Assembly: GCA_032718475.1 (NCBI GenBank)
Contig: JAUCBJ010006611.1
Location: 2,669-66,668, forward strand
DNA: 64,000 nucleotides
Reading direction: 5' to 3'
Source: Nemertoderma westbladi
Lineage: Eukaryota > Animalia > Xenacoelomorpha
Positions 5,210 to 63,110 of the stretch are shown here, piece by piece; the stretch's first letter is position 1; each line of letters begins with the position of its first letter. A program made the translations under genes and the position numbers. A model generated the notes under the pieces. It did not search any database, had not been told where the DNA came from, and saw only the letters and a program-made list of their open reading frames with translations.

Positions 5210-5396
5210 AGGACGCGAGAATAGATCTAATGGAGTGTAGTAGGGAGTGTTGGCACGGTTCTGGACTCGAAAATAGATCCAATGGAGAGCAGTATGGCGT
5301 GTTGGCTCGGCTCGGGGCGCGAGAATAGATCTAATGGAGTGTAGTAGGGAGTGTTGGCTCGGCTAGGGGCGCGAGAATATATCAAATGGAGCACAG
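5210..5396. repeat. 52-bp satellite, diverged terminal units
   Basis: 3-4 degenerate copies of the unit. Confidence 0.85.
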
Positions 5397-29600: not shown

Positions 29601-29963
29601 AAACATTATCTGCCCACGCTACAACTTCGAACTAAGTGGTTTGCGCAGCAAGAAAACGTCAGCGCCGGAGATATGGTGCTTATTGTAGATTCAGACCTCC
29701 CACGTAAACGGTGGCAGACAGGTCGTATCATCGAGACCCACATCTCGGATGATGGTTTAGTACGCTCGGTAGAACTCGTCGTCTTGCGGCGTAACTTCAA
29801 GAAGCCAGGTATAATCTTTGAGACGCAACAACTCAACCGCCCAGTTGGTCGTTTATGTCTACTGGAAAGAGACAGAGAACTCTCCGGAAACTATGGAAGG
29901 CAAGACACTCTTCCCACGACCACCTCCCTAATTCCTCAAACATCTAGGGACTCCCCAACGTGA
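26611..29963 (+). pseudogene. Bel/Pao RT-RNase H-integrase, frameshifted, part of RNase H apparently deleted
   Basis: RVVFDGSA, SDIEGMF, YMDD, FDPLG, WRHCPGTINPAD, RVGGRL, HAG..C..C, GVDLFGP, SDKGTNF, GGSWERLI, RPVGRLCLLE, spread over several frames. Confidence 0.92.
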
Positions 29964-37484: not shown

Positions 37485-37700
37485 GCGCAGTGGCGGTACG
37501 GCTAATGTCGCGTTACGGAAAGTCACGTTACGGCTAATTTTCTGAGTAGCCGTAACGCGACTTTGAAAGTCGCGGTACTGCTACTCAAAAAGTCGCGTTA
37601 CGGTAATCTATTGTCTTGGTTTTACATAGGGAATCATTATCAATATTATTCTATGGTGTTTATGTTTAAGTACATGAGATGAGAAAGGTTCGAAAAATGG
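37485..37700 (+). repeat. Dispersed repeat with GTCGCGTTACGG palindromic subunits; inverted copy at 62910-63110
   Basis: aatctattgtcttggttttacatagggaatcatt... matches the reverse complement of 62910-63000. Confidence 0.7.
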
Positions 37701-39313: not shown

Positions 39314-39511
39314 AGTAGTAGAAGAAACATAGACCTCAGCGTACTCCTCCCTAGCTTGGGCTATGGGCTAGATCTCGGAGGGCTATTAAAAATGCCAAAT
39401 TTCGGTGCTAAATTGCAGTGTTTAATGACCATCTGTCACCACCAGTATTGATTCGCGTCGTTGCCTTGCCTTCAACCAATCGTTGCGTATTCACCTACGC
39501 GTAGCCTAACC
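39314..39511 (+). repeat. Polinton left TIR (diverged extension to ~39836)
   Basis: Reverse complement of 58103-58300. Confidence 0.95.
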
Positions 39512-40073
39512 ACACGATGCCTGCCTTACTCCGCCATATGTCACCATCAGCAGTTGCCATCAACCAATCGTCGCGTAGCCTAACCTCGCGATGCCCGCCT
39601 TACTCGACTGACTGACTAACCCTAATGTTATTCACCTTTTCGCCACGTTACCACCGCTGCCACGTTACCACCACCACTGTATACTGTATATGGTGACGAC
39701 GTGGCCATCTACACGCATCACGCATATATTATATTATATTGATTGCCAACTCCACGACTGCTGTCGCCAAATCAACAAACCAACCAGTATGATACATGAA
39801 ATTCCGTCACGTTCCAGCTACGCGTATACGAGCATTAGTGATTATTATTATTATTATTACGCAATAATTTTTGTTTATACAGTAGTTCCCTACCGGCTAA
39901 TCAACCAATCAATAAACCGAATTTAGGCTATTTCTCAGTTTAAGACCAGTATTATTTTTGAAAATATCTTATATATATAATCTCTTGCTTTAATCACAAT
40001 TAATCATTTGTAATGGTTTTAGTTTAAAAGTTTTTACTTTGTTTGTTTGATTTACAATAAAATAAATTAAATA

Positions 40074-40517
40074 ATGTCTTCTGATTCCGATATGGTTATG
40101 CCAATAGTAAGGCATTCATTTTTTGCAGAAGATGGTGAAGCCTATATTGTTATTGATTATACAATTTACCGTCGGGGAGATGATACATATAAAATTGAGT
40201 TTTCTGAAAAAGCCAGGAAAGTTTTAAGCTCAATTGATATTGATGCTTCTGATAATAGTATTCATCTCTTAGATTACAACCTGAAAGTTGAGCATGAGGG
40301 AAAATTAATCAACATCTTACTATTATCCATGATAGAGGGGTTTATTGTTATTACACAATACAACGAAGCTGGTGAAAAGTTTGAAATACGGCTAAATCGG
40401 TATAGCCCCTACGAAATTATGTCTTTCTTTATTGTAATGATTTCAAAAGAATCCTTTGTCGAACCTGAAGAATCAACAGATAATGTTGAATATGTTGATA
40501 ATATCATTGATTCTTGA
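40074..40517 (+). CDS. Polinton hypothetical protein (147 aa, acidic)
   Basis: Clean ATG-stop ORF in AT-rich context; no recognised motif. Confidence 0.6.
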   Translation: MSSDSDMVMPIVRHSFFAEDGEAYIVIDYTIYRRGDDTYKIEFSEKARKVLSSIDIDASDNSIHLLDYNLKVEHEGKLINILLLSMIEGFIVITQYNEAGEKFEIRLNRYSPYEIMSFFIVMISKESFVEPEESTDNVEYVDNIIDS

Positions 40518-40703
40518 CTTTTCCCTCTATATTATAAATATTTTATGATTATTTATAAAATTTTGATGTTTTTAATTATGAAAAAACATCAAATTTTAAA
40601 TAATCGAAAATTGTAGTAGTAATTGCATATACAGTATAACAGATTTGTTTGTTGTTGTTGTGTATTGAGGTAATTATTTTCAATTTACTTTAAAATTTGG
40701 AAA

Positions 40704-41156
40704 ATGGATATTTTAAATGAAAAATGTCCAGTTTGCTATTCTAAGTTATTGCAACAACATCGAGATTATTATAAATGTGAAAATAAACATGCAACTTGCG
40801 TACAATGTATTGTACAATATTCCGAAATGAATAATTATTGTTCTAAAATTTGTCCTATTTGTCGCGCACCCATATCTAAGTTTAATATAAAGTTGGCAAG
40901 TTATCAACCCTATTATTGGAAAGAGCTTCGAAATATAACTTATACTTCTGCGGAAAGTAATGATCCAGGAGATTTATTTACAATATTGGAGAATATTTTT
41001 TATAGAAATGTAGTACGACGGTGTTGCTACTATATTCCTTATTTTTTTAGCAGCGAACATAAAAAAATCATTAGTGCGAAATTCTCGGAAAGTGATTTCC
41101 AAACCGCCGATGTTACCTATCATTATTTCGCGTATAAAGATGCTCACCATGCTTAA
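40704..41156 (+). CDS. RING-finger protein (putative E3 ligase)
   Basis: CPVC...CENKHATCVQC...CPICR C3HC4-type spacing. Confidence 0.75.
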   Translation: MDILNEKCPVCYSKLLQQHRDYYKCENKHATCVQCIVQYSEMNNYCSKICPICRAPISKFNIKLASYQPYYWKELRNITYTSAESNDPGDLFTILENIFYRNVVRRCCYYIPYFFSSEHKKIISAKFSESDFQTADVTYHYFAYKDAHHA

Positions 41157-41384
41157 AATTACATTGAAAATGAGTCTATACTATAATTGGAAATAGCACC
41201 TTTTGTTGCAGCGAGCGTCACATACTGTAGTTGTGTCATATGTTAATTAAATATACAGTACTCTAATATTGTAGTTGCATCAATTATTGTTATATACATA
41301 GTAATGGTGATGGTTTATTGATATTGATATTGATATTATATTATATTATATTGTATTGTTGATATATCTTAATAATAATAATAA

Positions 41385-42059
41385 ATGGCTGACTTTAATT
41401 CAGGTCCATATAATTTAAACTTTCAAATGGGAACGAGTATGATAATTTCTGGCCCATCTGGTTCTGGAAAATCAACGTTTGTCAGTAATTTAATTAAACA
41501 CAAGAATGGTTGTTTCAACGAAGCCCCCCTGGGAGTATTGTATTGTTACGGGAGCAATCCCCCGACTATTCCCGGTATTACTCACCTTTACAAAGGTTTG
41601 CCAGAAAATATAGATAGTTTAGTAAATAGTCGAGATTTATTAATTATAGATGATTTATTAACAGAAACTGAGTCCAGTACAGCTTTAACTGTATTGTTTA
41701 CTAAGGTAGCTCATCATTCCAATATATTTATTTGTTTTATAACGCAAAACATGTTTTACGGTGGGAAGCATAACCGCACAAGATCAATTAATAGCCATAC
41801 CTTAGTATTAATGAAAAATCCGCGAGACAGTCTATCGGTTTTAAATTTCGCAAAGCAGATGTTACCAGGGCAGACCAAATTTTTAGTAGATTCCTATCAA
41901 GATGCGACAATTGAACCATTTTCGCATTTCTTAATTGATTTACGACAGGAAACACCCGAACATTTAAGATTTAGATCGGATATATTTCGTAATCATAATT
42001 GTTACATTAAAAATTACATTGACTATAAACGTAGCGAAAATAATAATAATGATAAATAA
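41385..42059 (+). CDS. Packaging ATPase (A32/FtsK-HerA-like)
   Basis: Walker A GPSGSGKS, Walker B LLIIDD, HH..I..ITQN, KNPRD. Confidence 0.92.
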   Translation: MADFNSGPYNLNFQMGTSMIISGPSGSGKSTFVSNLIKHKNGCFNEAPLGVLYCYGSNPPTIPGITHLYKGLPENIDSLVNSRDLLIIDDLLTETESSTALTVLFTKVAHHSNIFICFITQNMFYGGKHNRTRSINSHTLVLMKNPRDSLSVLNFAKQMLPGQTKFLVDSYQDATIEPFSHFLIDLRQETPEHLRFRSDIFRNHNCYIKNYIDYKRSENNNNDK

Positions 42060-42096
42060 TTAATATTTTGTAACAATTTTCAATAATGTTGCAACA

Positions 42097-42480
42097 ATGA
42101 ATAGACTTGTGCAGAAATATCGTAACGAACTGGAATTTCTACGCAGCGCTACCCCTCAACAAAGAACTTATTTTATTAACCATACCGCGAGTAACGAATT
42201 AATACGGCTCATTGTAAATACTGCATTAAATGTTCTAAAAGGTAACGTACAATTAACCCCTCATTCATTTAGAAATATTCGCCGCTATAAGAAGGTATTG
42301 AAATCACTCAACCGTAAAACAAAAAATATATCAAGTTACAGAAAAAAGTTAAGCAATCAATCTGGAGGTATACTACCGTTTCTAATACCCTTACTCGGCA
42401 TTGGTGCGAAACTTGCTGCGAGTGCTGGTGCCGCCGCCGCTGGAGCAGCTATTGCGAAAAAAATTAACCGTGGACGGTAA
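42097..42480 (+). CDS. Basic virion core protein with adenovirus pX-like C-terminus
   Basis: QSGGILPFLIPLLGIGA resembles adenoviral pX GGILPLLIPLIAAAIGA. Confidence 0.7.
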   Translation: MNRLVQKYRNELEFLRSATPQQRTYFINHTASNELIRLIVNTALNVLKGNVQLTPHSFRNIRRYKKVLKSLNRKTKNISSYRKKLSNQSGGILPFLIPLLGIGAKLAASAGAAAAGAAIAKKINRGR

Positions 42481-42482
42481 TA

Positions 42483-42653
42483 ATGGTTAAAACGGGAGTA
42501 ACATTTAGAAAATTATATTTAGTATCGAGTAAACCGTTAGCTACTGATTTAAAACCACAAGATATACCTAGAGTAAATACTACAAAAAGAAAACCCTTTA
42601 AAACATCAACTTCAAAGAAAATAATTAAAAAATTTCAGTTGTTCTTACGGTGA
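42483..42653 (+). CDS. Small basic hypothetical protein (56 aa)
   Basis: MVKTGVTFRKLYLVS...; fills the gap between packed genes; below the ORF-track cutoff. Confidence 0.4.
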   Translation: MVKTGVTFRKLYLVSSKPLATDLKPQDIPRVNTTKRKPFKTSTSKKIIKKFQLFLR

Positions 42654-42703
42654 GATTTGAATAAGAGATTTGAATATACATATTACTTGCGGTTGTCGAA
42701 AAG

Positions 42704-43792
42704 ATGCCACGCAAGATGAAACCGATTTTAAGCCGAAGCTTAGACAAAAAACTGTTAAGAATTTATTTAGATCCATCATCCCCTGCGGGTTTTGCAAGTA
42801 TTGCAAAATTAGCAAAAGCTGCAAACATCAAACCAGCACAAGCCCAGAAATGGTTGAGCAGGCAAAAGACATACACCCTTCACGCTCCACGTAGACATCA
42901 TTATCCAACATCTAAAATATTTACGGGAGGCTTAAAAGATATATATATGATAGATCTGGTGGATATGCAGCAATATAAATCGCAAAATAATAATTATAAC
43001 TATATATTAACATGTATTGATGCCTTTAGCAGGCTTGCTTTTGCCTATGGTATGAAAACAAAAAAGGGTATTGAAATTATTAGTATATTGCAAAAAATAC
43101 TCCAGAAAGGAAAACCAAACAGAATCGCGACTGATCAAGGGTCTGAGTTTCTAAATAAATCTGTAAGAAAATATTTAGATACGTTAGGTATACAGTATTA
43201 CGTAATGTATTCTGTGAATAAGGCGGCTATTATCGAGAGATTCAATAGAACATTAAAAACAAAGATGTTCAAAATTTTCACGCAACGGGGAAATAATGTT
43301 TGGATTAAAATTTTACCAAAGCTCATTTATGCTTATAATAGGTCATATCATAGGACAATACAAATGACACCTATTGAAGTTAATAAATTTAATGAAACTG
43401 AATTAATGAATAGATTATATGGGAAATATAGACAGATTAATCACAAGAAAATAAAATTTAAAGTTGGAGATACAGTACGATTATCTATCGCTCGTACTGC
43501 TTTTGCTAAAGGCTATCGAGAACAATGGACACGTGAATTATTTATTATTCATCGTGTCAGGTTGGATAGAGTACCAGCGGTAATGTTCGATATTAAGGAC
43601 AGCGCTGGAGCTATAATAAATGGCTCATTTTATTCATACGAACTCCAAAAGGTCCACCCGAATAGTAATATTTATCTACCAATTGACAAAAATATTGGCA
43701 AACTTAAAGAACGTGTACGCAATGGGAAGAAAGAATATTTAGTCCGATTCATCGGATCCAAGAAACAGTCGTGGGTACAGCATATTCAATAA
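42704..43792 (+). CDS. Retroviral-like (rve) integrase with C-terminal chromodomain-like tail
   Basis: IDLVDM, IDAFSR, TDQGSEF, KAAIIERFNRTLK; GKKEYLVRFIG...SWV. Confidence 0.93.
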   Translation: MPRKMKPILSRSLDKKLLRIYLDPSSPAGFASIAKLAKAANIKPAQAQKWLSRQKTYTLHAPRRHHYPTSKIFTGGLKDIYMIDLVDMQQYKSQNNNYNYILTCIDAFSRLAFAYGMKTKKGIEIISILQKILQKGKPNRIATDQGSEFLNKSVRKYLDTLGIQYYVMYSVNKAAIIERFNRTLKTKMFKIFTQRGNNVWIKILPKLIYAYNRSYHRTIQMTPIEVNKFNETELMNRLYGKYRQINHKKIKFKVGDTVRLSIARTAFAKGYREQWTRELFIIHRVRLDRVPAVMFDIKDSAGAIINGSFYSYELQKVHPNSNIYLPIDKNIGKLKERVRNGKKEYLVRFIGSKKQSWVQHIQ

Positions 43793-44041
43793 GCTTAGGT
43801 TTATACTGTATATTAATTCATTTTGGTTGCATATGTCCGTAATTAATCAATATTAACTCGAATGATATTACTATATCTATAGTTCATCCGCTTTAAATAA
43901 AGCCAGTAAAATATTGATCCCTCACATATATTGTAGAAGCGACAATGAACGTGGTCACAGATGTCTATAATTTAACATTATACTGTACTGTATGTACAAT
44001 GGAGTCAAGTAGAGAGAGAGAGAGCTTAAATAATAATAATA

Positions 44042-44914
44042 ATGGCCACAGATACATATATCACTCTACTTTCAGATAGCTCATTAAACACTTACCCCAA
44101 TAATAATCCTAGTGAGTTTACTGTTGATTTAGCCGAAGAATTATATATTGGTCCAAACGCTAAAATTGGTTTGGCTGAGCTTCAATACCAAGCAACATAC
44201 AGTAATATTACACTGCAAACTCAAATCTCGCTGTCAATCGGGGTAGATGCAAAAGATGCCAAATTATATAGTTTATTTCCTGGTATGCATAGCTCTATTC
44301 AAGTGATTATTGATGATATAAATAAACTGTTTAATTCTGAAGCGAAATATAGAGATTTCGAATTCATTTTTAATACAAATAATTCTAGAATTAAATTTAA
44401 ATTTCCTAAAAAGTTGAAAAAAATACAATTAAGTCTACGTGGTGATTTAATACAAATTCTAGGCTTAAAACCGTTATTGGATCAGAATCATCCAGGTATT
44501 CCAAATTGGGATATATACAGTACCACTACAGTAGATGAATTAAGCAATATAGAACAACCGATATTAATTTTAAATTATAGCGGACCAAAAATTTCGGAAA
44601 TTGGCATTTTAGATTTTCCAGCTCCCACGAATATAACACGTAATAAAGATACAATTTTTATATATACTGATATTATTAAGAGCTCATTTGTTGGTGACGC
44701 TTTAGCTCCGCTCTTAAGAACCTGCCCTTTAAAGCAATTAAATCGAAAATATATTAATCACGAATACGAGAGTATTTGCTATTACCCATTGTTGAATAAA
44801 AAACTAAAAACAATCTTAATTACTTTACGTGACGGACAAGGCGAATTAATTAATTTTAGCGGAGGTCGCACTGTTATAACACTTAAGTTAATACGGGGTG
44901 GCGGTGATGGATGA
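44042..44914 (+). CDS. Minor capsid (penton-like) protein 1
   Basis: YITLLSDSS..YPNNNPSEFTVDL...IGLAEL; IFIYTDII...GDALAPLLR; F.GG..VITL, typical of the Polinton penton. Confidence 0.8.
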   Translation: MATDTYITLLSDSSLNTYPNNNPSEFTVDLAEELYIGPNAKIGLAELQYQATYSNITLQTQISLSIGVDAKDAKLYSLFPGMHSSIQVIIDDINKLFNSEAKYRDFEFIFNTNNSRIKFKFPKKLKKIQLSLRGDLIQILGLKPLLDQNHPGIPNWDIYSTTTVDELSNIEQPILILNYSGPKISEIGILDFPAPTNITRNKDTIFIYTDIIKSSFVGDALAPLLRTCPLKQLNRKYINHEYESICYYPLLNKKLKTILITLRDGQGELINFSGGRTVITLKLIRGGGDG

Positions 44915-45751
44915 ATTCTACGTAAGACTACCGAGTAACTCCTGTCCAGTTGATTTTCCGCGTAATTCTGCTAGTAGTTATCAGATCAATTTCCATGGCG
45001 CCTTACCTATAAACCCAAACGAAAACTGGGTGGTAGGTATAAAAAGTATATTTTACTTAGCAATGTTGCCGTCCATGTATAACAATGTAGAGAATGTTAT
45101 TTTATTAAAAAAAGGGAAAAAAAATTTTGAGGATACACTTCCATCCGGTTTGTTCTACAGTATCAATGACATTATAGATTATTTTAACACGGGGGCGTTG
45201 AAAGATAAATTACAAACAGTTGAAAATACTCAGCAAAATAGGTTGCAATTTATTTTAGGGAAAACTGTGCGAGAGTTATTTATAGGTCAACAATTAGCCT
45301 ATTATTTTGGAATTACTGAAAATAATCTCTGCGCGAATTTAAATCCAAATTTTAAAATTATTTTGAAGACGAAAAATAATATAAAGGGTTATTTAATAAA
45401 GGTTATCGGAAATGGAGAAAAAGCTTACCAGATGGTATTTTTATGCCCTCAACCACCCAATTCTATTCCAGAACCTAAGTCGAACATGTACGTGACTACT
45501 AATATAATTGAAAATCAATATATTAATGACTTGGTTTAGCTTTACTTCGTCGTGTTGCGATACCTGATGACGTGAAATATGGTAGCGTAATAAATAAAGA
45601 ATTTGTCAAGGATACAATTCATTATATCCCTGTAAAAAAATCATATAAGATAACATACATTCATATTGAAATAACAGACAAAGAAGGAAAAGATTTGAAT
45701 TTTGAATATGGGACAACATCTATTACATTACACTTTAAACGAATAAATTAA
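44907..45751 (+). pseudogene. Minor capsid (penton-like) protein 2, frameshifted near 45537
   Basis: FYVRLPSNS...WVVGIKSI; MYVTTNII; continues in a shifted frame as LLRRV...HYIPV...LNFEYGTTSITLHFKRIN*. Confidence 0.75.
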
Positions 45752-45752
45752 A

Positions 45753-46319
45753 ATGGATTCTGATTTATTTCAAAGATACAGTAAACCTCAATATGGTGGT
45801 GCAGACTCTAATCTTGCTGTTTTTAAAGGTGGTAGAAGTACGAGAGGCTCGACGCAAGTTCCTGTTTTTCGAGGTGGTTCATATATTGACCCTTACGGTC
45901 AACAAATTGGTGCATTTGGTCCAAACTTAAAACAACGTCGTTTTCAACGTTATCGTAGAGGTATGTCGCAAACAAATCAACACGGAGAAGGTATATTTAC
46001 AGACGCTTTATCGACATTGAAAAAATTTGGTAAGCCATTAGCTAAAAAAGTTTTACAAAAAGCTTTACCATTTACCACAAAATTTATGAGACAACACGTA
46101 ATACCAAAAGGTAAGCGGGTCTTACATCAGCAGGCTAATACGGTTATTAATAAAGCATTAAATAAAATGAAACCGTCAACAAGGTCAGTTGTAGAAAAAG
46201 TTTATAGAGATTTAAAGCGACCTGCTAGACCAATGTCTTTGAACATACATCATCGTCGTAGTAAAAATAGAAAAATAAAAAAAGGCAAACTGAAACACTG
46301 CGAAAAAAGTATTTTTTAA
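45753..46319 (+). CDS. Basic core-like protein with repeated xxGG motifs
   Basis: Arg/Lys-rich; QYGG, FKGG, FRGG, QHGEGIF; lies directly upstream of the MCP. Confidence 0.7.
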   Translation: MDSDLFQRYSKPQYGGADSNLAVFKGGRSTRGSTQVPVFRGGSYIDPYGQQIGAFGPNLKQRRFQRYRRGMSQTNQHGEGIFTDALSTLKKFGKPLAKKVLQKALPFTTKFMRQHVIPKGKRVLHQQANTVINKALNKMKPSTRSVVEKVYRDLKRPARPMSLNIHHRRSKNRKIKKGKLKHCEKSIF

Positions 46320-46321
46320 TA

Positions 46322-47581
46322 ATGTCAATTATTAAGGAATTAGATTTATTTTCTACACAGCCAATACAGACTGAATTTAAAGCAAAGCATTATGAAACAA
46401 TTTACCCCGTATCTAATCTCAGAAGTGAGTCTAGGGAAGTCACGTTCCTTGTACCGAGATCCAATGAATTCTATACGAAACTGCAAGATGCGTTATTAAT
46501 TACAAAATGTACTGTACGGTGGGATAGACAACTTGAAAACTCTCATATATATATGTTGAATTACCCTTCTGGGACTATGTGGAGTGATATTAAAATAGAC
46601 CTTAATGAGAAGCAGGTTGAAAATAGCAATAACCATTATTTCTACAAGTCGTACTTATCCAATTTATTATTTACAACTTATGAGGATAAAAATGGGCTAC
46701 TGGGTGCGGGTGGCTTTCATCAGCCTTTATCTGAACACGGAAATGAAATTGATCCCGGTGCGCATCCTATTGGCGATGCCTTTAGTAAACAAATGCAATT
46801 TGTAAGTGGATTGACGATTGATTTTGATACTGAAACTAAAATAATACAACCCGGGTATGATTTAAGAATGCATTTTAGAAAAGTATCAAATTCGTTTATT
46901 TTTAAAATCACTCCAAACGCAAACGCAGTGACAAATCTTCGGCTAGAATTAGATGAAGTAAAGATCCTAATCCCTAGAATGGAGGTTAATCCGGTAATAG
47001 AAAGCAGTCACCTAAAAGGTTTAGAGAGTTACGATATTGAATATCAATTCCAAAAAAAGGAGGTTACAACATTTACTATTCCCGCTCAAACCACAAATTA
47101 CACCCAAACAAACATATTTGATGGTAAAAAACCCAAATTAGTTATTATCGGCTTCATAACAAATAACGCTTATTCGGGAGAATTAATTAGCAATCCCTTG
47201 AAATTTGAACATTTTAACCTTAGACGCGCGGAACTGATTGTAGACGGTCTTCCAGTAGGTGGTGTAATATATGAGCCTAATTTTACAGATGGAACATATA
47301 TTTTTGAGTATACTCAATTAATGAAGAACATTAATACATATATTAACGGTTATGGAGGTAATAATATAGACCATGAAACCTACTTAGGTAATTGCCCCCT
47401 CCTATCCTGGGACCTAACCGCCGACGGCTATGTTAGAGATCCGCAACCGTCGATATATACTAATGGCCAATTAAAATTAAGATTTGCCGAACCGTTGGTT
47501 GAAACCATAAATGTAATCGTTTTTAATATTTATGATCAATCATTAAGTTTAAATAGCAGGAAAGAAATACATATCGATTAA
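46322..47581 (+). CDS. Major capsid protein (double jelly-roll)
   Basis: ELDLFSTQPIQT, YxYKSYLxxLL, GKKPKLVIIGF, NPLKFEHFNL, WDLT, LRFAEPL motifs of Polinton MCP. Confidence 0.88.
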   Translation: MSIIKELDLFSTQPIQTEFKAKHYETIYPVSNLRSESREVTFLVPRSNEFYTKLQDALLITKCTVRWDRQLENSHIYMLNYPSGTMWSDIKIDLNEKQVENSNNHYFYKSYLSNLLFTTYEDKNGLLGAGGFHQPLSEHGNEIDPGAHPIGDAFSKQMQFVSGLTIDFDTETKIIQPGYDLRMHFRKVSNSFIFKITPNANAVTNLRLELDEVKILIPRMEVNPVIESSHLKGLESYDIEYQFQKKEVTTFTIPAQTTNYTQTNIFDGKKPKLVIIGFITNNAYSGELISNPLKFEHFNLRRAELIVDGLPVGGVIYEPNFTDGTYIFEYTQLMKNINTYINGYGGNNIDHETYLGNCPLLSWDLTADGYVRDPQPSIYTNGQLKLRFAEPLVETINVIVFNIYDQSLSLNSRKEIHID

Positions 47582-47583
47582 GT

Positions 47584-48036
47584 ATGTTATCTACAGAGGA
47601 CCTTGATATGTTTCCAGTGGGTGGTCACTATTTGGGAGCGTTTCCAGCTAATAAATTACCTAAATTAGATAATAATAAGCGGAGAGATTATGGGTTAATA
47701 GTAAATACCGATAAAGAGCATCTGCCCGGGATTCATTGGATCGCAATATATATACGAGATAATGAGGCTGAATTATTTGATTCATTCGGATCAAAATATC
47801 CAAACAGATGTATCGAAAAATGGCTTGAGAAAAATTCCGCAAGATGGCGTACTACTCGCAAACAATTTCGAGACCCAAGGAGGACCACATGCGGCCTATA
47901 CTGTCTTTATTATTTGGTAAATCGAATTCACACAAACTATCCAATGAGTGCGTTTACAAATAATGTGGAAATAAATGAAATAATATTATATAAATGGCTT
48001 ATTAATTATTATAAAATAAACCAACAAGCGTTGTAA
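47584..48036 (+). CDS. Adenain-like cysteine maturation protease
   Basis: NTD...PGIHWIA, FDSFG, Q...CGLYCLYYL (His/Asp/Cys triad order). Confidence 0.9.
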   Translation: MLSTEDLDMFPVGGHYLGAFPANKLPKLDNNKRRDYGLIVNTDKEHLPGIHWIAIYIRDNEAELFDSFGSKYPNRCIEKWLEKNSARWRTTRKQFRDPRRTTCGLYCLYYLVNRIHTNYPMSAFTNNVEINEIILYKWLINYYKINQQAL

Positions 48037-48067
48037 TTAATCATTTAGCTTTTGTTTATCAGATAAA

Positions 48068-48670
48068 ATGGATAATATTATTTTTGTTGATTTTCAATAT
48101 TATAAGATAGACAATAAAGAGTATCCGGTAGTATTTAAAGAATTTGCTATATTCGATTCTAATTACACCAAAACTAATGTAAAGACGTTTTTAATTAAAG
48201 GCCCACCTAATATTAAGTTATCAGCCTTAGATGTAGCTCACGTAAACAATTTACGAGACATGACTTCGCATTTACCTTGGGATTACGGCGACTTTTCGCA
48301 AGATGACTTTAAAAAATACATGAAGAGACATTTAAAATATAAAAAAAATATACATGTATTTGGGTTGATGAAGCGGGCAATATTAGTTTCCCAACTTGAT
48401 GTTCTCGCACCAAATTCGATGGAGAAATTGTGGATATATCATCAGCAATATTACAATTATTTAACCCCCTGTCGCTTCCACGATCAATTTATTGCACTAG
48501 AAAATAAATGTGCGTTCCACTTAAACACAAAGGATAACTGTCTGCGGTATTGCTCAGCAAAACAGGTCGGTGGGTTTGAATTGAAACGATTTTTCGTGAG
48601 AAAGCGTTTAACTGCGACTGATGATGATGATAAACAGAAAGAAATAACTGTGGTGGAAGATGTACTGTAG
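48068..48670 (+). CDS. Polinton accessory protein, possibly a derived DnaQ-like fold with C-terminal Cys/His cluster
   Basis: IIFVDFQ...FKEFAI, LPWDYG, CRFH...CAFH...C...CS. Confidence 0.55.
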   Translation: MDNIIFVDFQYYKIDNKEYPVVFKEFAIFDSNYTKTNVKTFLIKGPPNIKLSALDVAHVNNLRDMTSHLPWDYGDFSQDDFKKYMKRHLKYKKNIHVFGLMKRAILVSQLDVLAPNSMEKLWIYHQQYYNYLTPCRFHDQFIALENKCAFHLNTKDNCLRYCSAKQVGGFELKRFFVRKRLTATDDDDKQKEITVVEDVL

Positions 48671-49699
48671 GTTTACTCTAAGCATGTAATGTGATGGGAT
48701 AATATAATTGTTTTAATGTCAATAAAAATAATAAAAACATTAAAATCTATTTTTTAATATCTCAGTTTGACTGAAGGTGTAGGGCTTAAGTTTACACTCA
48801 CAAACACACCGCACCTACCGGTAGCCGGCTGTTGTATCAGAGTTTAACTACCAGCAGCTAGCTGATTTTACTACATATACCAAAAACGCTAAACTGTAGA
48901 ACGGCAGAATGGCCCCGACAGCAACCATAGCGCTTTAGCGTTACCGTACTTACTAATAATAAAATTAAATTAACTTGACATGTGGGGTTCGTGAATGCAG
49001 CATTAGAGGAGGCCCACCTAACAATAGGCCTACTGGTACCGGCACCGTAGCACTCTTGTAACTGTATACTTGGATAGAGCAAGGGCATGCTGGTTTCTTT
49101 GATTTAAGGATTAGGCTATTACACTTGAATGCTTCCAATTTTCTGTTTACAAATTTAATTGGTCTAATCTACATTACTGCGGGCTACTACTGTTGCATAG
49201 GTAAGCCTATACAGCTATAGTTAACTTTATGCGGCCCCCCCTTTTCGAATGTTGACCCAATATGCTTTACGGTTAACCTTTAGAACACACGGATAGGCCC
49301 ACCTTCATTCGTTAGGCATATAGGCCTAATGACTACTCCTCAACTGAAAGCCACCTACCACATTGATACAATAGGTATGGTTAGGCGTCGGTAGCGCTAT
49401 AGGCCCTATAAAATCCCCTCGCACTCTGTTACTCTAGCTGATACAATAGGTGTGGTTTGAGGTATAACTATATAAAATCCACCACATTCTCTGGTTACTA
49501 ACATTCACTCTATGTTAACGATCCTATATAAAACATAGTTAGTTAGTTTATTTTATTTATTTATGCGTCCGCTTTTTAAATTAAATTACATATAATATAG
49601 ACATACACAGACCGGTAACATTTAGGTCTACTTTATAAATGCAGAAATGAGTATGAGTGTACGGGTGTACAGGTGTACTAGTTAGATACCAGTATCCAT

Positions 49700-50107
49700 C
49701 TATGAAAAATATTCATGATTAGGCCTATTATTATTACAGGTAGGCATTGCTAGTTTAATTTCTTTCCAAATAGTCTCTACCGGTTCTGGTATAGTTGCAG
49801 CGGTCTCTGTTTCCCAATTCTCTTGTAGAGTTGCTGGTATTAATTCGTTTTGATTACTGGTAACTTCTTCTTCTTCTTCCGTTCCTGGATTTATTCTTAT
49901 ATTCAAAGTAAAGTTTTTTGTTGTTTCTAACTTTGTTACACCATGTTCGTGATTGATGATATTGGTAAATCCGATTTCAAATTTTTTATTAATGTATCTG
50001 ATTTCCAAATCAGATACGTTTGATGATGATACAAAAGTATCCTCACTCTCAAAATCAAACTTTATGTTGCTTTTCAACGAACGGTTGTTGATATAGGCGA
50101 AAGTCAT
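49700..50107 (-). CDS. Hypothetical protein (135 aa)
   Basis: ATG ORF with TATATATAAA ~25 nt upstream on the minus strand; no recognised motif. Confidence 0.5.
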   Translation of the reverse strand: MTFAYINNRSLKSNIKFDFESEDTFVSSSNVSDLEIRYINKKFEIGFTNIINHEHGVTKLETTKNFTLNIRINPGTEEEEEVTSNQNELIPATLQENWETETAATIPEPVETIWKEIKLAMPTCNNNRPNHEYFS

Positions 50108-50806
50108 CTTCTTGCTGTCTCAGGTTAGTTTAGGTTTATATATATAGTCTAAGGGTAACAGACAGGGTGGATACAGTATACCAGTATTTTTATTTTTTTT
50201 CTTATTTTGGTTAACAAAATTATAGTTCATTGTTTGAAAATTGAGTTTATATATATTTTTGTAGTGGGTCGCAGATGTTTACATTACAAAATTCACATAG
50301 TTAACAAAATGTAGAACATAAACCTTTCCCATGTGGATTAGCGATATATGCTCTGTTCATTGTTCTATTCTGAAAGTAGGGAGATGCATAGCGGATGTTT
50401 TAATAATAATAATATGTGCCGGTATACAGACTAGTAACAGATAGGATGGCATCGTCTTTGACTATGAATACCAGCACATACCCCTAATCTTTTTCTCACT
50501 GAGCTTAGCGTTGCCTGCTGTACACACGCACACTCATAAGTAACAGATGCGCTATTGTAGCTCACTCATGAGCAACAATGCTTAGTTAGCTAGCTAGCTA
50601 GCTATGGCTGCTGAGTATACTATGCCTACTTGAGTGTTACAAGCAATCGCTCTACTGAAGTTAGTTAGTTAATTTCCCATCAAACTAGTTGTTGATTTAA
50701 AAAAAAATATTCATAAATTTCTTCTCCCCCCAATTTAATATATATATATTTTACAGTAAAAATCTCCACCACCAAACAGCAACAACAACAATAAATTTCA
50801 CTCACA

Positions 50807-51361
50807 CTAATTATATTTTACATCAAAAACCCCCACACCAAACAATAATAAATTATTAACCAGTTTGTTGAATATAGGATAATATATATGAAATTTAAAC
50901 GGGGAACACATTAATGTACATTTACCAGTGTAGAAACAGAAAACAACAACAATATTATTTATTCTGACTTTACAGTTATTGAATATTTCAGGGTCGTATG
51001 AAATTTCTAGTTTAACATTATCAAATATAACATAAAACCCGATATTGTTTATAAGTAACCTATAAATTACAGTATCGATACTAAAAATATAAGTACACAA
51101 ATTGATTGATTTAAAAATCAAATTAATGTTTGTTTTTTCTAATATATGCTTTTTCACTTTATTAAAATTATATTTTCTACCGAGAATTGTTATTCGTCCA
51201 TTTGTAAACATTAATATGGTTGCACCAAATACCTTATATATAAACTGATTAGGTTTGAGTACAATTTTACCATTCAATTGATTTTTTAATTCTCTTAAAT
51301 TAAGTCCATAAATAATCTGCTTACAACTTATATTTTTATTTACTATTTGATAATTCATCAT
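50807..51361 (-). CDS. TATA-box-binding-protein-like protein
   Basis: Two TBP-like half repeats: YQIVN..LNLREL..ATILMFTNGRITILG and SYDPEIF..VVFCFYTGKCTL (cf. TBP TTALIFSSGKMVCTG, SYEPELF, LLIFVSGKVVL). Start could be 51388, 51361 or 51358. Confidence 0.78.
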   Translation of the reverse strand: MMNYQIVNKNISCKQIIYGLNLRELKNQLNGKIVLKPNQFIYKVFGATILMFTNGRITILGRKYNFNKVKKHILEKTNINLIFKSINLCTYIFSIDTVIYRLLINNIGFYVIFDNVKLEISYDPEIFNNCKVRINNIVVVFCFYTGKCTLMCSPFKFHIYYPIFNKLVNNLLLFGVGVFDVKYN

Positions 51362-54300
51362 CAACACCATCGTCTTTTGGTTCTTCATAAATTGGTATAT
51401 TTGTGGCTGGCCACGAGAAAAGGGACCTTATGTTACCGGAGGTCGATTTTGAGTTATTAGGCCTATGAGATGCAGAATTTTACAGAGATTTTAACAAAAA
51501 AAACGGTGTCTCAATATCTATTTCCAAAAAAAAGTTATAGCGATTTATGTGAAGGTGATTCGGGTAGCTCTATTCCTACCTACCCTTATTAGTACCTTTT
51601 ATTAAAGTCCTAAATTCAGACATGAAAACACTAAAACAGTGTTATATACAACACTGCAACATCTTATATTGCTTCCTGTAATTAGTTCTTTCCTAGGTAT
51701 CTTGAATATCAGAACCAATTTGAATTTCCCGCATCGTTTTATACATTTATAAATTGATAATCCAATTAAATTAGTTCAAAATTAGAGGGAAACTTTAAAC
51801 GCGATTATCTCAGAATCAGGTTTTGCGACATAAGGTCCCTTTTCTCGTGGCCAGCCACATTTGATATTTTTATAGGTTTTTTGAGGTTTGTTTTATAGTG
51901 CCCCCAAGGAAGTGATTGATTTTTATTAACCCAATAAAGTTTATCATCAAAGCTACTGAGTGCAAATTTATTTTGCTTTAAGGTATAAATATGATGTAAT
52001 TTAGATTGAAATCTGTGTATGTTTTTTTTTATTTCTTCATTTGAGTTATATGCTTTTAAATATTCTTCATGTGTAATATTCGTTTCCACAACAGCTCTTG
52101 TAATACCTTTTGCTCTACGAATATTTTTATTATTCCATTCCAAAATTGAATATAATTTTGGTCTTAAAAATACTGCTTGTTTAATTTCACGTGAGGCTAG
52201 TTCGTCTTTACAGTAATAGAGTCTGGATTTATTTTTATCGCTGTAGAGTGGGTGATCCTTAGGGTAATTGGATGTATCTAAAATATTATTTTTAATTAAT
52301 GCTTTTAAAAAATTATTCTGTGATGTATTATAATAACAACCTATCAACAAGTCAGTGTCTGATGCAGCAATTTCAATACAGCAGTTTAATTCTTTCTCAA
52401 TAGGTAGCAATTTATTGTAATACAGCTCATACATATCCAATTTAGCCAAGTCCAACACAGTGCTACCAATAAATATAGGCTTATCGAGAGTTACAGAGTC
52501 TTTCACTAATAAATGTCCCGATAGTGTATTATTGTATATTATAAATTGTTCATGATTAATACGATTTACCAATTGATCGCATTTATTGTTGCTATTTGCG
52601 ATACGAAAGTTACATCGATCTCTTATCTTTTCTATTGATTTGCCAAACAACGAATTATTGAGCAATTTCGCGACAGCTGTTTCAATATAACTTTTTGCCA
52701 GTCGCCTTTGATTAATATTAAAATCGATGTAATTTTTAATACAAATTCTTGTTGAAAAGAATATAATTTATGTAGTTTAGTAACAATTAATCCATGTTTT
52801 ATATAAAATTTTAACAGTTTCAAATGTAAATGATAAAACTCTTTATCAAATTGCGTCAGCATGAGTTTTGGTATAGACATTCTATATTTACGGGAGGTAC
52901 CTCTTTGTAATGACAAGTTATTAAATTGTTCCATCATATAAGGCAAAAGCATTGATTCATTTATACTTAAATGCTCAGGGGCTAACGGTAATTGTAATGT
53001 TTGATCGTGAATAGCCTTGGGATAATTTAAATCACATATTAAAAAATATCCAGTAGATCCATCAATGTCTAAATCTACCAAGTACTCGATTAGTTTTTCT
53101 GGAATTGCATTCTCTAAATGTTTAATACTTACTTCTTTGAATTGTGAGGTGGGTAGTTTTTTACTTAAATTCCCAGAATATAAAGAGTTGAAATCAATAT
53201 TAAAAATATGGCATTCTTCCTTAGTAGAATCATATGTACTTGTACCTGGTATATTTGATTCTATATAATGCTTTCGACAAAATGAAACACCACCCCTAAT
53301 TGATTTTTCAAAATCTCTATATGTCTGATAATCCTTTATTAATTCTATTTTACATTTATTATATTTTAGCGCGCAATCATCTAGGTAAATGACGCGATAC
53401 TACAGTAAAAAACCGCTTCTAAATCGTAATTTTGTTTACAAACATTCCTAAAATTCTCAAATATATCAGCAAGCAAACAAACATCGAGTTTTAAATAGGC
53501 TAAAAGATAATCTTTGAGATTCACACAGTCGAATTCTACCCATGATATTCCCGCAAACCTATAATCTTCAATTGTGCATGTTTTTTGACTTAAGTTACTA
53601 AAAAAATTATTTATAGACGGCAAACCAGTATCATTAAATTTATTTATATCTGTCAAGTACTCGTATGGAAATACTCCTTTCCGTTTAATTGTTGAGTTAT
53701 TCAAGTTTGGATAAAAATATTTCATTTCTTGTAGAGTAATAGGTAAAATTGAGCTTATATCATGACTCACTACATCCTTTGTTGAACACTCAACTAAATT
53801 ACTTAAAGAAAAGCTTAAAAATTGATATGTGTCTAAGAAACGTAACTCAATTTTCTTAGAAGTGTTTTTAATTGGGATAAATGCACTCAGTGAAATATAT
53901 CGTTCTGTATTTCTCGGTATAACCTTTATATCCCAATCTGTGTATTTCTTATCTCTAAATCCGCTTTGTAATATACAATGTATATCGTAATTGTTGGAAT
54001 TATGTCCGCAAAGTACATACAGGTATCGTTTCAATGATAAACTTCGGTTACAACTATTACAGGCTGCCGCAATATATTTACCTGTAATATGTGAATGATG
54101 TCTGTTTTTCCCTACATTATTATTTAAAGTAACATTACAATAAAAACAAAATTTTGCTTGTTCAAAATTTACAAAATCAATATTAGTAAATGACATAGTT
54201 TTATGCGTGTATATTTCTGACCAACAACATAATTCAGTTAAATCAGTATATAATGTATCTAAGAAATCTTGAATACAATTATTATTATTTGACTTTACGA

Positions 54301-55828
54301 ATGTTTTCAAATGACATTTTGGAGCATCAATTAATTCAGTATTGGGAACAATTAAATAACTCACAGCACACGGTATATGCTCCTGTATAATTTGATTATT
54401 AACTGACGGTTGTAAGATACATTCTATATCAAAGTAGGTGACAAACAATGGGGTTAAGGTTCTATCTAAATTTGTAAAACTAATGTGTGTTCTTTTTTTA
54501 TTAGGTAGTGTCTCTCGCTGACTTCTTCCTTGGTAGCAGGCGAGACGGTGTCGATGAAGAACTTCCGCACGAAAAAAATGAGCCAAACACCTTTCGCAAT
54601 ATTTCCTATTCCCGATATGAAGAGCTCTCGTATTCAGCAATCGATTCAGGTTAGTTATGCAAACATAATGATTCAGTTTAGGTACATTGTTATTTTTTAC
54701 TACAAGTAATATATTTAATAACTGTTTATCGGGTGTAATTTTACTAAACGGAGGTTGTCTTAATATAGATACGGGGGTGCGTTTGTTGTCGTTATTCCAA
54801 CATAGTAAATTAATTATATATTTTGAATTTTGTTTTTCAAAAAGTTTAATCGCTAACTGCCACTCTGTTGGATAATCATTTTTCCCATTGTCAAAAATGA
54901 AATGACTCATATAATTTTTGTACGACGAAGTACGCTGTTTGTTGTTTTTCACTTTGCTACCAAATTTTGCAGATATAATTGCCCATTTAAAACAGTCATT
55001 ATCAGCCGATTGTACATTTATAACACACTGTTTACCTGATAGAGCCTTAGGTAATTCCATATATCCATGCCCCTTATATAGTAACGACCTACACTTAGAT
55101 TCAGCTAATTTAATTTCAACCCTTAATAAAGATTTAATACGCCACCCCGAACCACGTGTGTTAAAGATGGCTATTTTTTGTAATATATTTTCCACCACAT
55201 ACTCAAACCATGTGTCAAAACTTTGCGATGAATCTACAGTATTAATAGCACCACCGGAAGAATTAAAATAAAAGGTTTCCAATTGCTCACCTTCTGAAAA
55301 ATGTGATCTGTACATTAATACATTTAGACCTAACCACAGTCTAAGAACATTCATTTCTTTCAATCTATCTAATATTAACTGAAGAATATTACCTCGAATT
55401 TGCGCTAATGCTGTTTCTACATCGGGATAATCTCTAGAAGTTGGGAGGTCGTGGGCTTCTTGTTCCCGCGTAAAAATTGTTGCGCATGTACCAAGAGCCA
55501 CCCTTAAGTTTTTTCTGGATATTATATTTTTATGTTGCGGAAATTTACGCTTTCTTGTGTAGTAACATTTCAAGTGACAATCGTGTCGTATATAATTCTC
55601 ATATGTATACTCTTTATTACAGGTAGAACAAGTCAATTGATAGGTGCGGAACTCCATTTCTTTACAACCAGTAGTTGATTCATGTCGTTTACAAATTTCG
55701 CTGCATGAAGTCATGACATGACACTTAAAACAAGAATAACCTTCAAAATGCGAGCGTAGGTGGCGTAAATAATTATGTCTAGTTACATTCATATGACAGA
55801 ATGAACAACATATTGTTATTTTATCCAT
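51336..55828 (-). pseudogene. Protein-primed family B DNA polymerase (pPolB); two frameshifts and a MITE near the 3' end
   Basis: GSGW, NDCFKWAI, FDIEC, EndoVII-like RHHSHITGKY..ACNSCN, HNSNNYD, FLDTY, RKGVFPYEY, IRGG, DFNSLY, LNNSLFGK, SDTD, KLY, KGI. Confidence 0.93.
51403..51858. mobile_element. Non-autonomous TIR DNA transposon (Sola-like by TSD)
   Basis: 31-bp TIR GTGGCTGGCCACGAGAAAAGGGACCTTATGT; 4-bp TSD ATTT (51399-402 / 51859-62). Confidence 0.85.
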
Positions 55829-56015
55829 GTTGAAGTTTGTTTAGATAAATAATAATAATAATAATAATAATAAAATATGTCCAAAGATTAAAATAAAATG
55901 ATATGATATTGACTATATCTAAACATTTATATGCTAGCGAGGGAAATAATTTTAAACCAATCACCAATCGCTTATGACTATTGGAAACCGCAAAGAGTTT
56001 AACTTATGATTAGGT

Positions 56016-57080
56016 TTACATATTAGGATAATAATCTGGTTTCCATGGAGAATTAGTAACAGGCTCTACTAGAACTGGGTTACTGACAACTTTCTGTTTC
56101 TTTGCAGGTGATGCGTTGGTAAATTTACTCGATGATCTTGGCTTCCGAGGTAATATTTCAGGAAAGACCTGTTGCGGTTGAGAGCAACTCTCTTCAACAT
56201 CCGGATTAGGTGATGGGATCTCTACGAATGCTTTAGGTTTATCCAAAAGGACAAAACCGTCAACATGGGCTTCAGTAAGAGAAACGCCATCCATCGATTC
56301 TTTGAGAAAACTAATATGGGCTTTATCATTCAAGTAATGCAACTCAATAGAATTTCCGCCGGCACCTACTTCAGTAGAATTATCGGTGTTGGTGATAATA
56401 ATTTTTTTATTATTGGTTTTAATCATTTTGAGCCGGTCTGATAATTGAATGATATTTTTATCAAAAAGATGCTTGTCTGTTTCATCGACTTGGTTGTCCC
56501 ACTCTCGCAACAAAACGGTTAGTTCCTGTTTTGACAAATTGAAACCCGTATAATAGTTAAAACCAACACTATCAGCGTATCTGAGGCTGATTTTCCATAA
56601 GCCAACATAGTTGGTTCCTTTAAAAGCTGTTACAAATCCAATAAACTCTGGATTTGATAATTCAATGTAGAATTGATCGCTAATAATCTCTAGCGGTGGA
56701 GAGAGAAATTGCAATAATTTCCCTCTGTATTGAATTAGAACTTCAGTAAAAGCTTTGTTGAGAACTTTACATTTGCCTTGTTTCTGAACGTAAACATCAC
56801 CCGATGTGGGGTTGATGGAAATATTCAAATTTCCCCGCGCAAAATGAAGAGTTGGATATATCCTACCTGGTATAATTGCTGGTCTGGATTGATGTTGGTT
56901 GTTGTTGGTTGTTTCTAGAATGTCTAACAAATAGCGGGTATCTTGATGGGAAAAACAAATTGATTCATTGTCCTCCTGAGATTCCACAATAAAATACTTG
57001 CTGTGAACGACGGTACAAGTATATTTATTGTAAGTAAATTTCCAGCTATTTGTTCCTCCGGTTTTTTGCGTTAAGGCCAT
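56016..57080 (-). CDS. Polinton protein with PC4/Sub1-like ssDNA-binding motif(s)
   Basis: FVTAFKGTNYVGLW...TGFNLSKQEL resembles PC4 VSVRDFKGKVLIDIR...KGISLNPEQW; NLS-like PAKKQK. Confidence 0.55.
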   Translation of the reverse strand: MALTQKTGGTNSWKFTYNKYTCTVVHSKYFIVESQEDNESICFSHQDTRYLLDILETTNNNQHQSRPAIIPGRIYPTLHFARGNLNISINPTSGDVYVQKQGKCKVLNKAFTEVLIQYRGKLLQFLSPPLEIISDQFYIELSNPEFIGFVTAFKGTNYVGLWKISLRYADSVGFNYYTGFNLSKQELTVLLREWDNQVDETDKHLFDKNIIQLSDRLKMIKTNNKKIIITNTDNSTEVGAGGNSIELHYLNDKAHISFLKESMDGVSLTEAHVDGFVLLDKPKAFVEIPSPNPDVEESCSQPQQVFPEILPRKPRSSSKFTNASPAKKQKVVSNPVLVEPVTNSPWKPDYYPNM

Positions 57081-58102
57081 AATAATAATAAATACGAAAA
57101 ATATTACAAGTGATAAATTTTAAACCATATCGCTGTAATAAATTGACACCATAGTTCTCACTCTAAAAATTGTGATGGTTGGAAAACAACACCTGATAAA
57201 ATGATACTGAATCCGACATTGGGGTTGAAAAACCCATAAAAAAATAGAAAGCTGTTACAAATCCAATAAACTCTGGATTTGATAATTCAATGTAGAATTG
57301 ATCGCTAATAATCTCTAGCAGCTATTTATTTTTTTACAGGTTTTACAACCCTAATGTTGGAAACAGTATCATTTATAATGTAGAAATTATTAAGAAAATA
57401 ACACAATTTTAGAGTGAGAACAAAAAATTAGATATGGTATCAATATATTAAAATGAAGATTACAAGTGATGAATTTTATTAAAAACATTCAGTTATATAT
57501 AAATTTGCGATGTGGCATAGTCAACGTAGAAGAGATGGGACGTGTCATAATCATCGACGAATAAGAAAAGAGATGGGGTGCAATGCGGATGAATGGTTGA
57601 TTGGTTGCGTGGATAGGAAATACATGAAAGAATATGAATCATAGGGTTGTGCGTAATAATCAATAATTATTATAATAAAAACGCTCAGTATAATGTTAGT
57701 ATTAGCCTTTCAATATGGCACAGATGCTGTGGGATCGGTTAGGATGATTAACAATGGAAATGTTCGTATACGTGTAGCTGGAACGTGGCGGAATTTCATG
57801 TATCATAGTGCTGGACTGGTAGGCTGGTTGGTTGGTTTGGATTGGTGACAGCCGTCGAGGAGTAGCGGTAGCTAGCGGTGGGGTGGGTAAATCGTTGAGT
57901 TGGCAATCGATATAATATCGGGTGGGGTATATGCGTGTAGATGGCCACGTCGTTGTTAGTAGTATCATCACATATACAGTATACAGTGGGGGTGGTGGTA
58001 GCGTGGCGAAAAGGTGAATAACCGGTGGGCCAGTTAGTTTGTTAGTTAGTTAGTGGGTAACAGCATTCAGTCAGTCGATCGATCGGTCGGTCGGTCGATT
58101 GA

Positions 58103-58300
58103 GGTTAGGCTACGCGTAGGTGAATACGCAACGATTGGTTGAAGGCAAGGCAACGACGCGAATCAATACTGGTGGTGACAGATGGTCATTAAACACTGCA
58201 ATTTAGCACCGGAATTTGGCATTTTTAATAGCCCTCCGAGATCTAGCCCATAGCCCAAGCTAGGGAGGAGTACGCTGAGGTCTATGTTTCTCCTACTACT
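58103..58300 (-). repeat. Polinton right TIR
   Basis: Reverse complement of 39314-39511. Confidence 0.95.
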
Positions 58301-58556
58301 AACGGCTCCTCAGCTCACTAGAACATGCTGCTTCTAGTGTTGGTCTTTTTATTAACTCCAGAAAGACCAAAATTCTGCAATTTAGCACCGGAATTTGGCA
58401 TTTTTAATAGCCCTCCGAGATCTAGCCCATAGCCCAAGCTAGGGAGGAGTACGCTGAGGTCTATGTTTCTCCTACTACTAACGGCTCCTCAGCTCACTAG
58501 AACATGCTGCTTCTAGTGTTGGTCTTTTTATTAACTCCAGAAAGACCAAAATTCTG
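58196..58556. repeat. 179-bp tandem duplication spanning the Polinton right end, TSD and LINE flank
   Basis: ctactact-aacggc occurs at both 58293-58306 and 58472-58485. Confidence 0.9.
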
Positions 58557-62909: not shown

Positions 62910-63110
62910 TTACATTTTTCGAACCTTTCTCATCTGTATGTAAACACCATAGAATAATATTGCTAATGATTCCCTATGTAAAACCAAGACAATAGATTAG
63001 CCGTAACGCGACAATTAGCCGTAACGCGACTTTTAGAGTAGCCGTATCGCGACTTTTAAAGTCGCGTTACGGCTAATCTCCCAAAAAATTTGCCGTAACG
63101 CGACGACACC
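62910..63110 (-). repeat. Inverted copy of the 37485-37700 repeat
   Basis: Shared core and CCGTAACGCGAC subunits. Confidence 0.7.

Follow-up and report, generated by a model that had tools for sequence, protein, structure and literature searches.

The DNA analyzed here, a 64,000-nucleotide stretch of a contig from Nemertoderma westbladi (hereafter the window), contains a minus-strand open reading frame (ORF) that raises a question about the Polinton in which it lies. Does a mobile element of 19 kb carry a TBP gene of its own, and if so, what might the encoded protein do? An earlier sequence-only reading had proposed that the ORF has the signatures of both TBP half-repeats, that it is native to the element, and that it is coupled to the neighboring pPolB gene. 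It also suggested that the product may divert the host polymerase to the element's promoters or serve as a TBP decoy.

The Polinton sits within a LINE reverse transcriptase gene. We found terminal repeats starting with AGT, a 6-bp TSD, and integrase, ATPase, protease and major capsid genes, which are criteria for Polintons. These features, the further capsid genes and a probable pPolB are held in common with known Polintons, Mavericks and adintoviruses, from which the element differs in that TBP is not among the genes described for them in the portions of the literature consulted. The terminal inverted repeats are alike at 198 of 201 nt. The features of the element are:

39314..58479, no strand assigned, Polinton/Maverick element of 19,166 bp with AGTAGT termini and the TSD AACGGC
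39314..39514, plus strand, left terminal inverted repeat (201 nt at the outer end, with patchy similarity inward to ~39836)
40704..41156, plus strand, RING-finger ORF, accessory (RING families below the Pfam cut-off)
41385..42059, plus strand, packaging ATPase (P-loop; Pox_A32 E=1.2e-3, below cut-off)
42097..42480, plus strand, pX-like core protein (Adeno_PX E=0.013, below cut-off)
42704..43792, plus strand, retroviral-type integrase (rve E=1.9e-10)
44042..45751, plus strand, two probable minor capsid genes (by position and look, with no match; the second broken by a stop)
46322..47581, plus strand, major capsid protein (45 homologues at 21-28% identity, two of them named capsid/major capsid protein)
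47584..48036, plus strand, adenovirus-type maturation protease (Peptidase_C5 E=1.3e-5)
49700..50107, minus strand, 135-aa accessory ORF, downstream of the TBP-like gene
50807..51370, minus strand, TBP-like ORF with two TBP lobes (184 aa from ATG 51361; 187 aa from ATG 51370)
51336..55828, minus strand, pPolB gene (three reading frames here, a MITE near the 3' end, last stop at 51336-51338)
56016..57080, minus strand, 354-aa accessory ORF, upstream of pPolB
58100..58479, minus strand, right terminal inverted repeat

The minus-strand genes are thus arranged in the order 354-aa ORF, pPolB, TBP-like ORF and 135-aa ORF. Over the three frames of pPolB lie, in order, what we take to be the exonuclease and polymerase motifs of a protein-primed family B polymerase, and the gene has no Pfam, NCBIfam or PDB match. 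By eye, a stretch of the 354-aa ORF (56016-57080) resembles what is presumably a PC4-type single-stranded-DNA-binding motif; Pfam, PDB and Atlas gave no support to this reading, and it was set aside. A Polinton fragment from a metagenome, L125, has the same gene order and ends after the protease. Locus searches found no related Polinton locus that reaches the pPolB end: locus L123, considered as a candidate, looks like a phage and was rejected, and a scan of locus L124 for TBP returned no match. We also looked for other components of a transcription apparatus in the element. Pfam searches of 73 further ORFs gave no match to a TFIIB-like protein, although a very divergent TFIIB could escape them, and a 5-sequence archaeal TFB profile run on 271 segments reached E=2.4 at best. 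No RNA polymerase gene was detected in the 19-kb element.

At 58191-58548, the TSD and the outermost part of the right terminal repeat occur as a 179-nt tandem duplication. Inverted repeats at 37544-37662 and 62941-63078, 25 kb apart, enclose both the LINE and the Polinton, which suggests three nested elements. Farther away in the window, a 525-aa frame encoding PH and RhoGAP domains runs without interruption (11039-12616, minus strand; E=2.5e-43) and is either a retrocopy or one large exon. On the plus strand, 22694-29963 holds the ORFs of a Pao/BEL-type retrotransposon (DUF1759, Peptidase_A17, DUF5641), which are followed by a 1368-aa ORF at 31730-35836. The LTRs of this retrotransposon are possibly the two nearly identical 300-nt repeats at 18743 and 35915. 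Tandem arrays at 1600-5500 and 15785-17800 have 52-nt and 90-nt units.

The frame of the TBP-like ORF is open from stop to stop over 50807-51427 of the minus strand, and the coding part runs across 555 nt at 23% GC. The start had been placed at ATG 51361. The open frame is present, as are both of the motifs that had been quoted for it, and the placement of the start is the part that fares less well, since ATG 51370 has the best start context (A at -3, G at +4). The motif ILMFTNG maps to 51217-51197, YDPEIF to 50998-50981, and FCFYTGK to 50941-50921. At the other end of the ORF (50740-50860), the final codons resemble the stretch just beyond the stop, so that a local duplication may have produced the tail from about residue 173 onward. 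On the minus strand, an ATTAAA is found nearby at 50739, and Rfam gave no matches over 48600-52000.

Judged by sequence profiles, the ORF is a two-lobed, strongly diverged TBP homologue. The Pfam family PF00352 matches its first lobe only, with an E value of 1.2e-5 and a score of 25.5 bits, where the cut-off is 22.9. A profile of our own, built from 68 TBPs (67 from prokaryote genome contigs and one viral), aligns residues 13-148 and hence both lobes at 17.5 bits, compared with 6.6 for the best of 2000 shuffles. Profiles that include eukaryotic TBPs (151 TBPs) score the ORF at 21.5-22.0 bits, where the best of 2000 shuffles reached 8.0 and 12.5. Among 934 six-frame segments from the window and two control loci, the ORF is the sole significant profile match. 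The second lobe by itself is weaker (11.1 bits, outscored by one of 1000 shuffles), and the NCBIfam TBP model matches weakly over residues 9-149 (E=0.004). In the ESM Atlas, 29 of 30 matches are TBP clusters, wherein the best has a score of 0.94 and 202 of 256 features in common with the ORF; the recognition value of 1827 lies under the tool's threshold of 2300. Both half-repeat signatures and the homology that had been read from them are therefore upheld, the likeness being beyond chance by profiles.

Direct comparisons are silent. The internal repeat is not detectable when one half of the ORF is aligned directly with the other (1040 of 2000 shuffles are equally good), and PDB sequences hold no direct sequence match. 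Direct searches of protein sets, viral contigs, metagenome contigs and phage records returned no relatives, and a close homologue is absent among 1.84 billion protein representatives.

The residues that are kept resemble in several respects those of cellular TBP (PF00352; yeast 1ytb, human 1cdw), with which the ORF shares two lobes, a core of ~180 aa, the F-x-x-G-K/R turns, four phenylalanines and an acidic C-terminal stirrup. Using yeast numbering (counted from the yeast-type TBP P0065 and the 1rm1 range), profile alignment places Phe at all four intercalating positions, namely F40, F52, F127 and F143 (yeast 99, 116, 190 and 207). The sequence-only reading had indeed noted Phe at TBP-equivalent positions, and F40 aligns only with a 5-residue gap behind Phe99. 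Also kept are Gly125, Arg196 (ORF Arg133), Lys211 (ORF Lys147) and the acidic pair of the C-terminal stirrup, Asp123 and Glu125 of the ORF (yeast 186 and 188). These two acidic positions are described as TFIIB contacts, and the TFIIB-specific pair as missing from bacterial TBP lobes, in the relevant passages of PMC7221094.

Other hallmarks of cellular TBP are lost. The ORF is at most 24% identical to the cellular protein and is without the N-terminal extension, and its N-terminal stirrup and hairpin are 5 residues shorter owing to a deletion behind Phe99. Asn159 is replaced by Thr (ORF Thr90), Pro191-Gly192 by Asn-Asn, and Thr215-Gly216 by Met-Cys. The counterpart of Asn69 depends on the alignment, being Asn10 in one and unmatched in another, and the paired central Asn (69/159) and the Thr-Gly pairs (124-125 and 215-216) are not conserved as a set. 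Among the 27 columns that are conserved in at least 90% of TBPs, 13 are kept by the ORF.

Structure prediction gave a mixed result. An AlphaFold model made from the single sequence, with no alignment, has a pLDDT of 33. When this model was compared with 48,161 chains, the first five matches were RnlA, three TBPs and RNase H3, all of which are TBP-lobe proteins, with Z 3.2-3.5 and rmsd 2.1-3.9 Å over 43-56 residues and covering only residues 33-88. A second model, guided by 36 TBPs, shows two lobes at pLDDT 62 (<50 over most of 98-127). It matches TBPs at a Foldseek E of 2e-7 and with Z 8-9.8 over 157-169 residues, and TBP-like models from large dsDNA viruses at Foldseek E 4e-7 to 1e-4. Because it was built on a TBP alignment, however, these matches are not independent evidence. 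The Foldseek comparison proposed earlier thus returned the TBP matches, but with no closed TBP saddle, and the TM of ~0.4 and rmsd of 7-8 Å mean that the saddle geometry is not confirmed.

Whether the gene belongs to the element turns on its junction with pPolB, which in this copy is interrupted:

51335..51340, minus strand, AATAAA overlapping the pPolB stop, within the 5' end of the TBP-like ORF
51403..51858, no strand assigned, MITE of 456 bp with 31-32-nt terminal inverted repeats and ATTT on both sides, missing from other copies

It had been claimed that removal of the MITE puts the pPolB stop at 51336-51338. Indeed, the frame on the far side of the MITE ends at exactly this stop. The stretch is present in five sequencing runs of four studies, and in all four of the runs in which the junction was examined, contigs skip exactly 460 nt (the MITE plus one target copy), with the joint at 51398-51859. 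The fact that contigs of all four runs join the pPolB tail to the ORF without the MITE argues that the TBP-like gene is native to the Polinton family, as had been supposed. Moreover, a single contig spans the pPolB tail and the ORF in run X4 and likewise in run X5, and the predicted pair is thereby found in other family copies.

The proposed coupling of the two genes comes down to adjacency and a short overlap. The frames overlap by 26-35 nt, with ATG 51370 lying 35 nt inside the pPolB frame. Tight packing is general, in that other gene pairs of the element abut just as closely, and the AATAAA over the pPolB stop points to separate pPolB and TBP transcripts. The ends of the MITE are joined to unrelated flanks in contigs of X4, so the MITE is an independent mobile element of the genome. 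Run X5 is labelled as a second organism and shows the pPolB-TBP junction (50937-52299) at high identity and low depth, which reflects a close relative, a mixed sample or a mislabel.

The variation among copies bears on whether the frame is maintained. The 1804 contigs of run X1 range from >99% to <90% alike, and the Polinton family therefore has many variants. Among the indels listed (12 of 22), the single one inside the ORF is 3 nt long; the other 11 are all in non-coding sequence immediately 3' of it. Seven of the pieces listed lie wholly inside the ORF and were scored for gaps only; six are gapless, one of them despite 53 differences in 289 nt, and the seventh has a 1-nt gap. Among the pieces listed, copies that are 10-18% diverged align to the ORF without gaps. 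On the basis of the indel distribution and the gapless pieces, the reading frame looks constrained. The substitutions are less telling: the 10 listed within the ORF comprise four synonymous, six non-synonymous and no nonsense changes, two being private to the window and five falling in one 9-nt cluster, and their synonymous share does not differ significantly from a neutral share of 0.19 (P=0.11).

The ORF is 14-24% identical to 151 TBPs, a set that includes insect and nematode TBP/TRF and from which the host's own TBP is absent. Identity to the eukaryotic TBPs averages 19%, whereas a yeast-type TBP has a median of 59% to the same set. Given identities of 24% or less, a recent host retrocopy is excluded, in agreement with the earlier reading. 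Among 152 sequences the ORF has the longest branch (3.4 versus a median of 0.24). It pairs with P0136, a 176-aa TBP from a short Logan contig that is 23-26% identical to it (SH 0.983; SH-aLRT 95-96 in a quick tree, which used 51 of the 152 rows), and both members of the pair are long branches. They share Asn118, Thr159, Asp186, Asn191, Cys206 and Thr209, each of which occurs in 0-4 of the other 150 TBPs; P0136 was itself retrieved by words of the TBP-like ORF, and Asp186 probably lies within such a word. We count these rare shared residues in favor of an old, selected divergence. Relative to P0136, the ORF has further lost 5 residues of the first stirrup and Thr215-Gly216. The phylogenetic check that had been suggested thus yields the deep divergence and the pairing with P0136, but the donor lineage could not be placed in the quick tree (51 of 152 rows).

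A protein of this kind invites a search for the promoters it might serve. The element has seven minus-strand TATAAAA sites, two of which form a candidate promoter of the TBP-like gene itself:

51868..51897, minus strand, two TATAAAA boxes in the pPolB tail, with first bases at 51897 and 51874

In MITE-free copies, these boxes would precede the ORF by a few tens of bases. Synonymous shuffles contain two TATAAAA words in 790 of 20,000 cases (4%) and one or more in 57%. Because the encoded residues favor such words, the boxes give only a weak hint of an internal promoter. Upstream of nine structural and packaging genes, the best motif was no better than those that 10-15 of 25 random sets gave, and exact k-mers upstream of 14 genes showed nothing beyond multiple testing. 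A TATT-like box of the herpesvirus type, shared upstream of late genes, was not found in this one copy. All of these motif tests rest on a single copy of the element and on start sites deduced from the ORFs. With its pPolB broken and the MITE separating the boxes from the ORF, this copy is probably silent.

Precedents for such a gene come from larger DNA viruses. TBP-like genes are widespread in DNA viruses according to passages of PMC7221094, and PMC12917281 and PMC10132985 add poxvirus VITF-3 and mirusvirus proteins. Like the Polinton ORF, the TBPs of large dsDNA viruses are divergent and two-lobed, with the key Phe kept and the N-terminal lobe altered; for viral TBPs, a loss of host-regulator surfaces is described as well. 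Almost all of the viruses with a TBP also encode a TFIIB-like protein, whereas none was detected in the Polinton. Most TBP-bearing viruses, which encode their own TFIIB, vary at the acidic stirrup positions, the first of which is kept in ~40% of cases (same passages of PMC7221094); the Polinton ORF keeps both. The BcRF1/ORF24/UL87 proteins of beta- and gamma-herpesviruses offer a parallel of another kind, being viral TBP-fold proteins that bring the RNA polymerase II (Pol II) of the host to viral promoters (passages of PMC4893493). They differ in their size of 577-1005 aa, their six-member complex and their TATT box, whereas the Polinton ORF is a bare 184-aa core. Among viral contigs, L001 carries a near-canonical 186-aa TBP (1341-1901, minus strand) beside an ORF of 411 aa with the look of a capsid gene from a giant virus.

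For Polintons themselves, the openly accessible texts surveyed yielded a single entry. The Fig. 5 legend of Starrett et al. 2021 (PMC8502044; preprint 10.1101/697771) uses "TBP" to label a gene in a MELD virus with an adintovirus-like PolB. As in our case, the TBP-like gene belongs to a linear DNA virus or element of medium size and Polinton type. It differs from ours in being a figure label only, with no analysis of residues or function, and the related section 3.4 of the same paper concerns non-animal data sets. TBPs are named in mirusvirus-like elements, not Polintons, in PMC10675990, and PMC12220804 is without a passage on a Polinton TBP. A TBP-like gene in a small Polinton is therefore barely described, whereas larger DNA viruses were already known to carry such genes.

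The reading that we favor, and to which we give a slightly better than even chance, is that the protein serves as the element's own promoter factor and uses host TFIIB and Pol II. It would bind AT-rich DNA through its four phenylalanines, with a sequence preference that was presumably changed by the replacement of Asn159, Pro191-Gly192 and Thr215-Gly216. Host TFIIB would dock on the conserved acidic stirrup, and host Pol II would then transcribe the genes of the element. The shorter N-terminal stirrup may free the protein from those host regulators that act through the N-terminal lobe, and the gene itself might be expressed from the TATA boxes in the pPolB tail. We count in favor of this role that the acidic TFIIB positions are kept in an element with no detected TFIIB-like ORF, and that BcRF1/ORF24/UL87, which drive late genes with host Pol II, provide a precedent by analogy. 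Counted against it are the absence of a shared motif, the retention of 13 of 27 conserved columns, the lack of a saddle in the model and the lack of a close homologue. A wider proposal, which we advance tentatively as a possibility, is that animal Polintons keep a minimal-TBP lineage of their own that acts at non-standard promoters, with the dock for host TFIIB kept and the host-regulator surface shed.

The same features can be read in other ways. Of the protein's motifs, the acidic stirrup YDPE is kept best, changes affect the N-terminal stirrup and a number of DNA-contact residues, and the regions upstream of the element's genes yielded no dedicated promoter box; this is what might be expected of a decoy or repressor that holds host TFIIB or occupies AT-rich promoters, thereby damping host genes or early genes of the element. 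We consider this unlikely, because a pure TFIIB sponge would not need the four phenylalanines, Lys147 and Arg133 of the DNA face, and because the viral TBP-like proteins characterized in the passages of PMC4893493 and PMC12917281 are activators. It is quite unlikely, too, that the gene worked in an ancestral element and is now decaying in this Polinton family. Its branch length, the additional residue losses relative to P0136 and the synonymous count that does not differ significantly from neutral would agree with decay, but the 555-nt frame is open, nearly all the listed indels lie beside it, diverged copies align without gaps, and no nonsense change is among the 10 substitutions listed.

In RNase HIII and RnlA, TBP lobes also bind nucleic acids in a general way (passages of PMC7221094), and the ORF adjoins pPolB in the same orientation and has a saddle geometry that its model does not confirm. 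A protein re-used outside of transcription, to bend or hold AT-rich element DNA in protein-primed replication or packaging, would fit these observations; we regard it as improbable, given that the TFIIB-specific acidic pair is kept and that adjacency is unremarkable in a tightly packed element. Finally, the lack of a direct match in PDB or in large protein sets and the subthreshold Atlas recognition would be expected if the likeness were due to chance or if the gene were a recent host TBP retrocopy. Either origin is very improbable, since four profile searches agree and beat all shuffles and the mean identity to eukaryotic TBPs falls far from the yeast-type median. Furthermore, the third-position GC of 0.22 is at the low end of, and close to, the 0.23-0.34 of the element's other genes.

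The value of the promoter-factor reading is tempered by the precedent in larger viruses, by the published figure label and by the fact that no target motif was found here. Nevertheless, the way in which Polintons switch on their capsid genes bears on whether they live as viruses. The Polinton TBP lacks residues that hardly vary among cellular TBPs, and it thereby also offers a natural experiment on how little TBP function requires. If the minimal Polinton TBP does act as we propose, an element of 19 kb would be hijacking Pol II initiation with one gene, where giant viruses use a TBP paired with TFIIB and herpesviruses a complex of six proteins.
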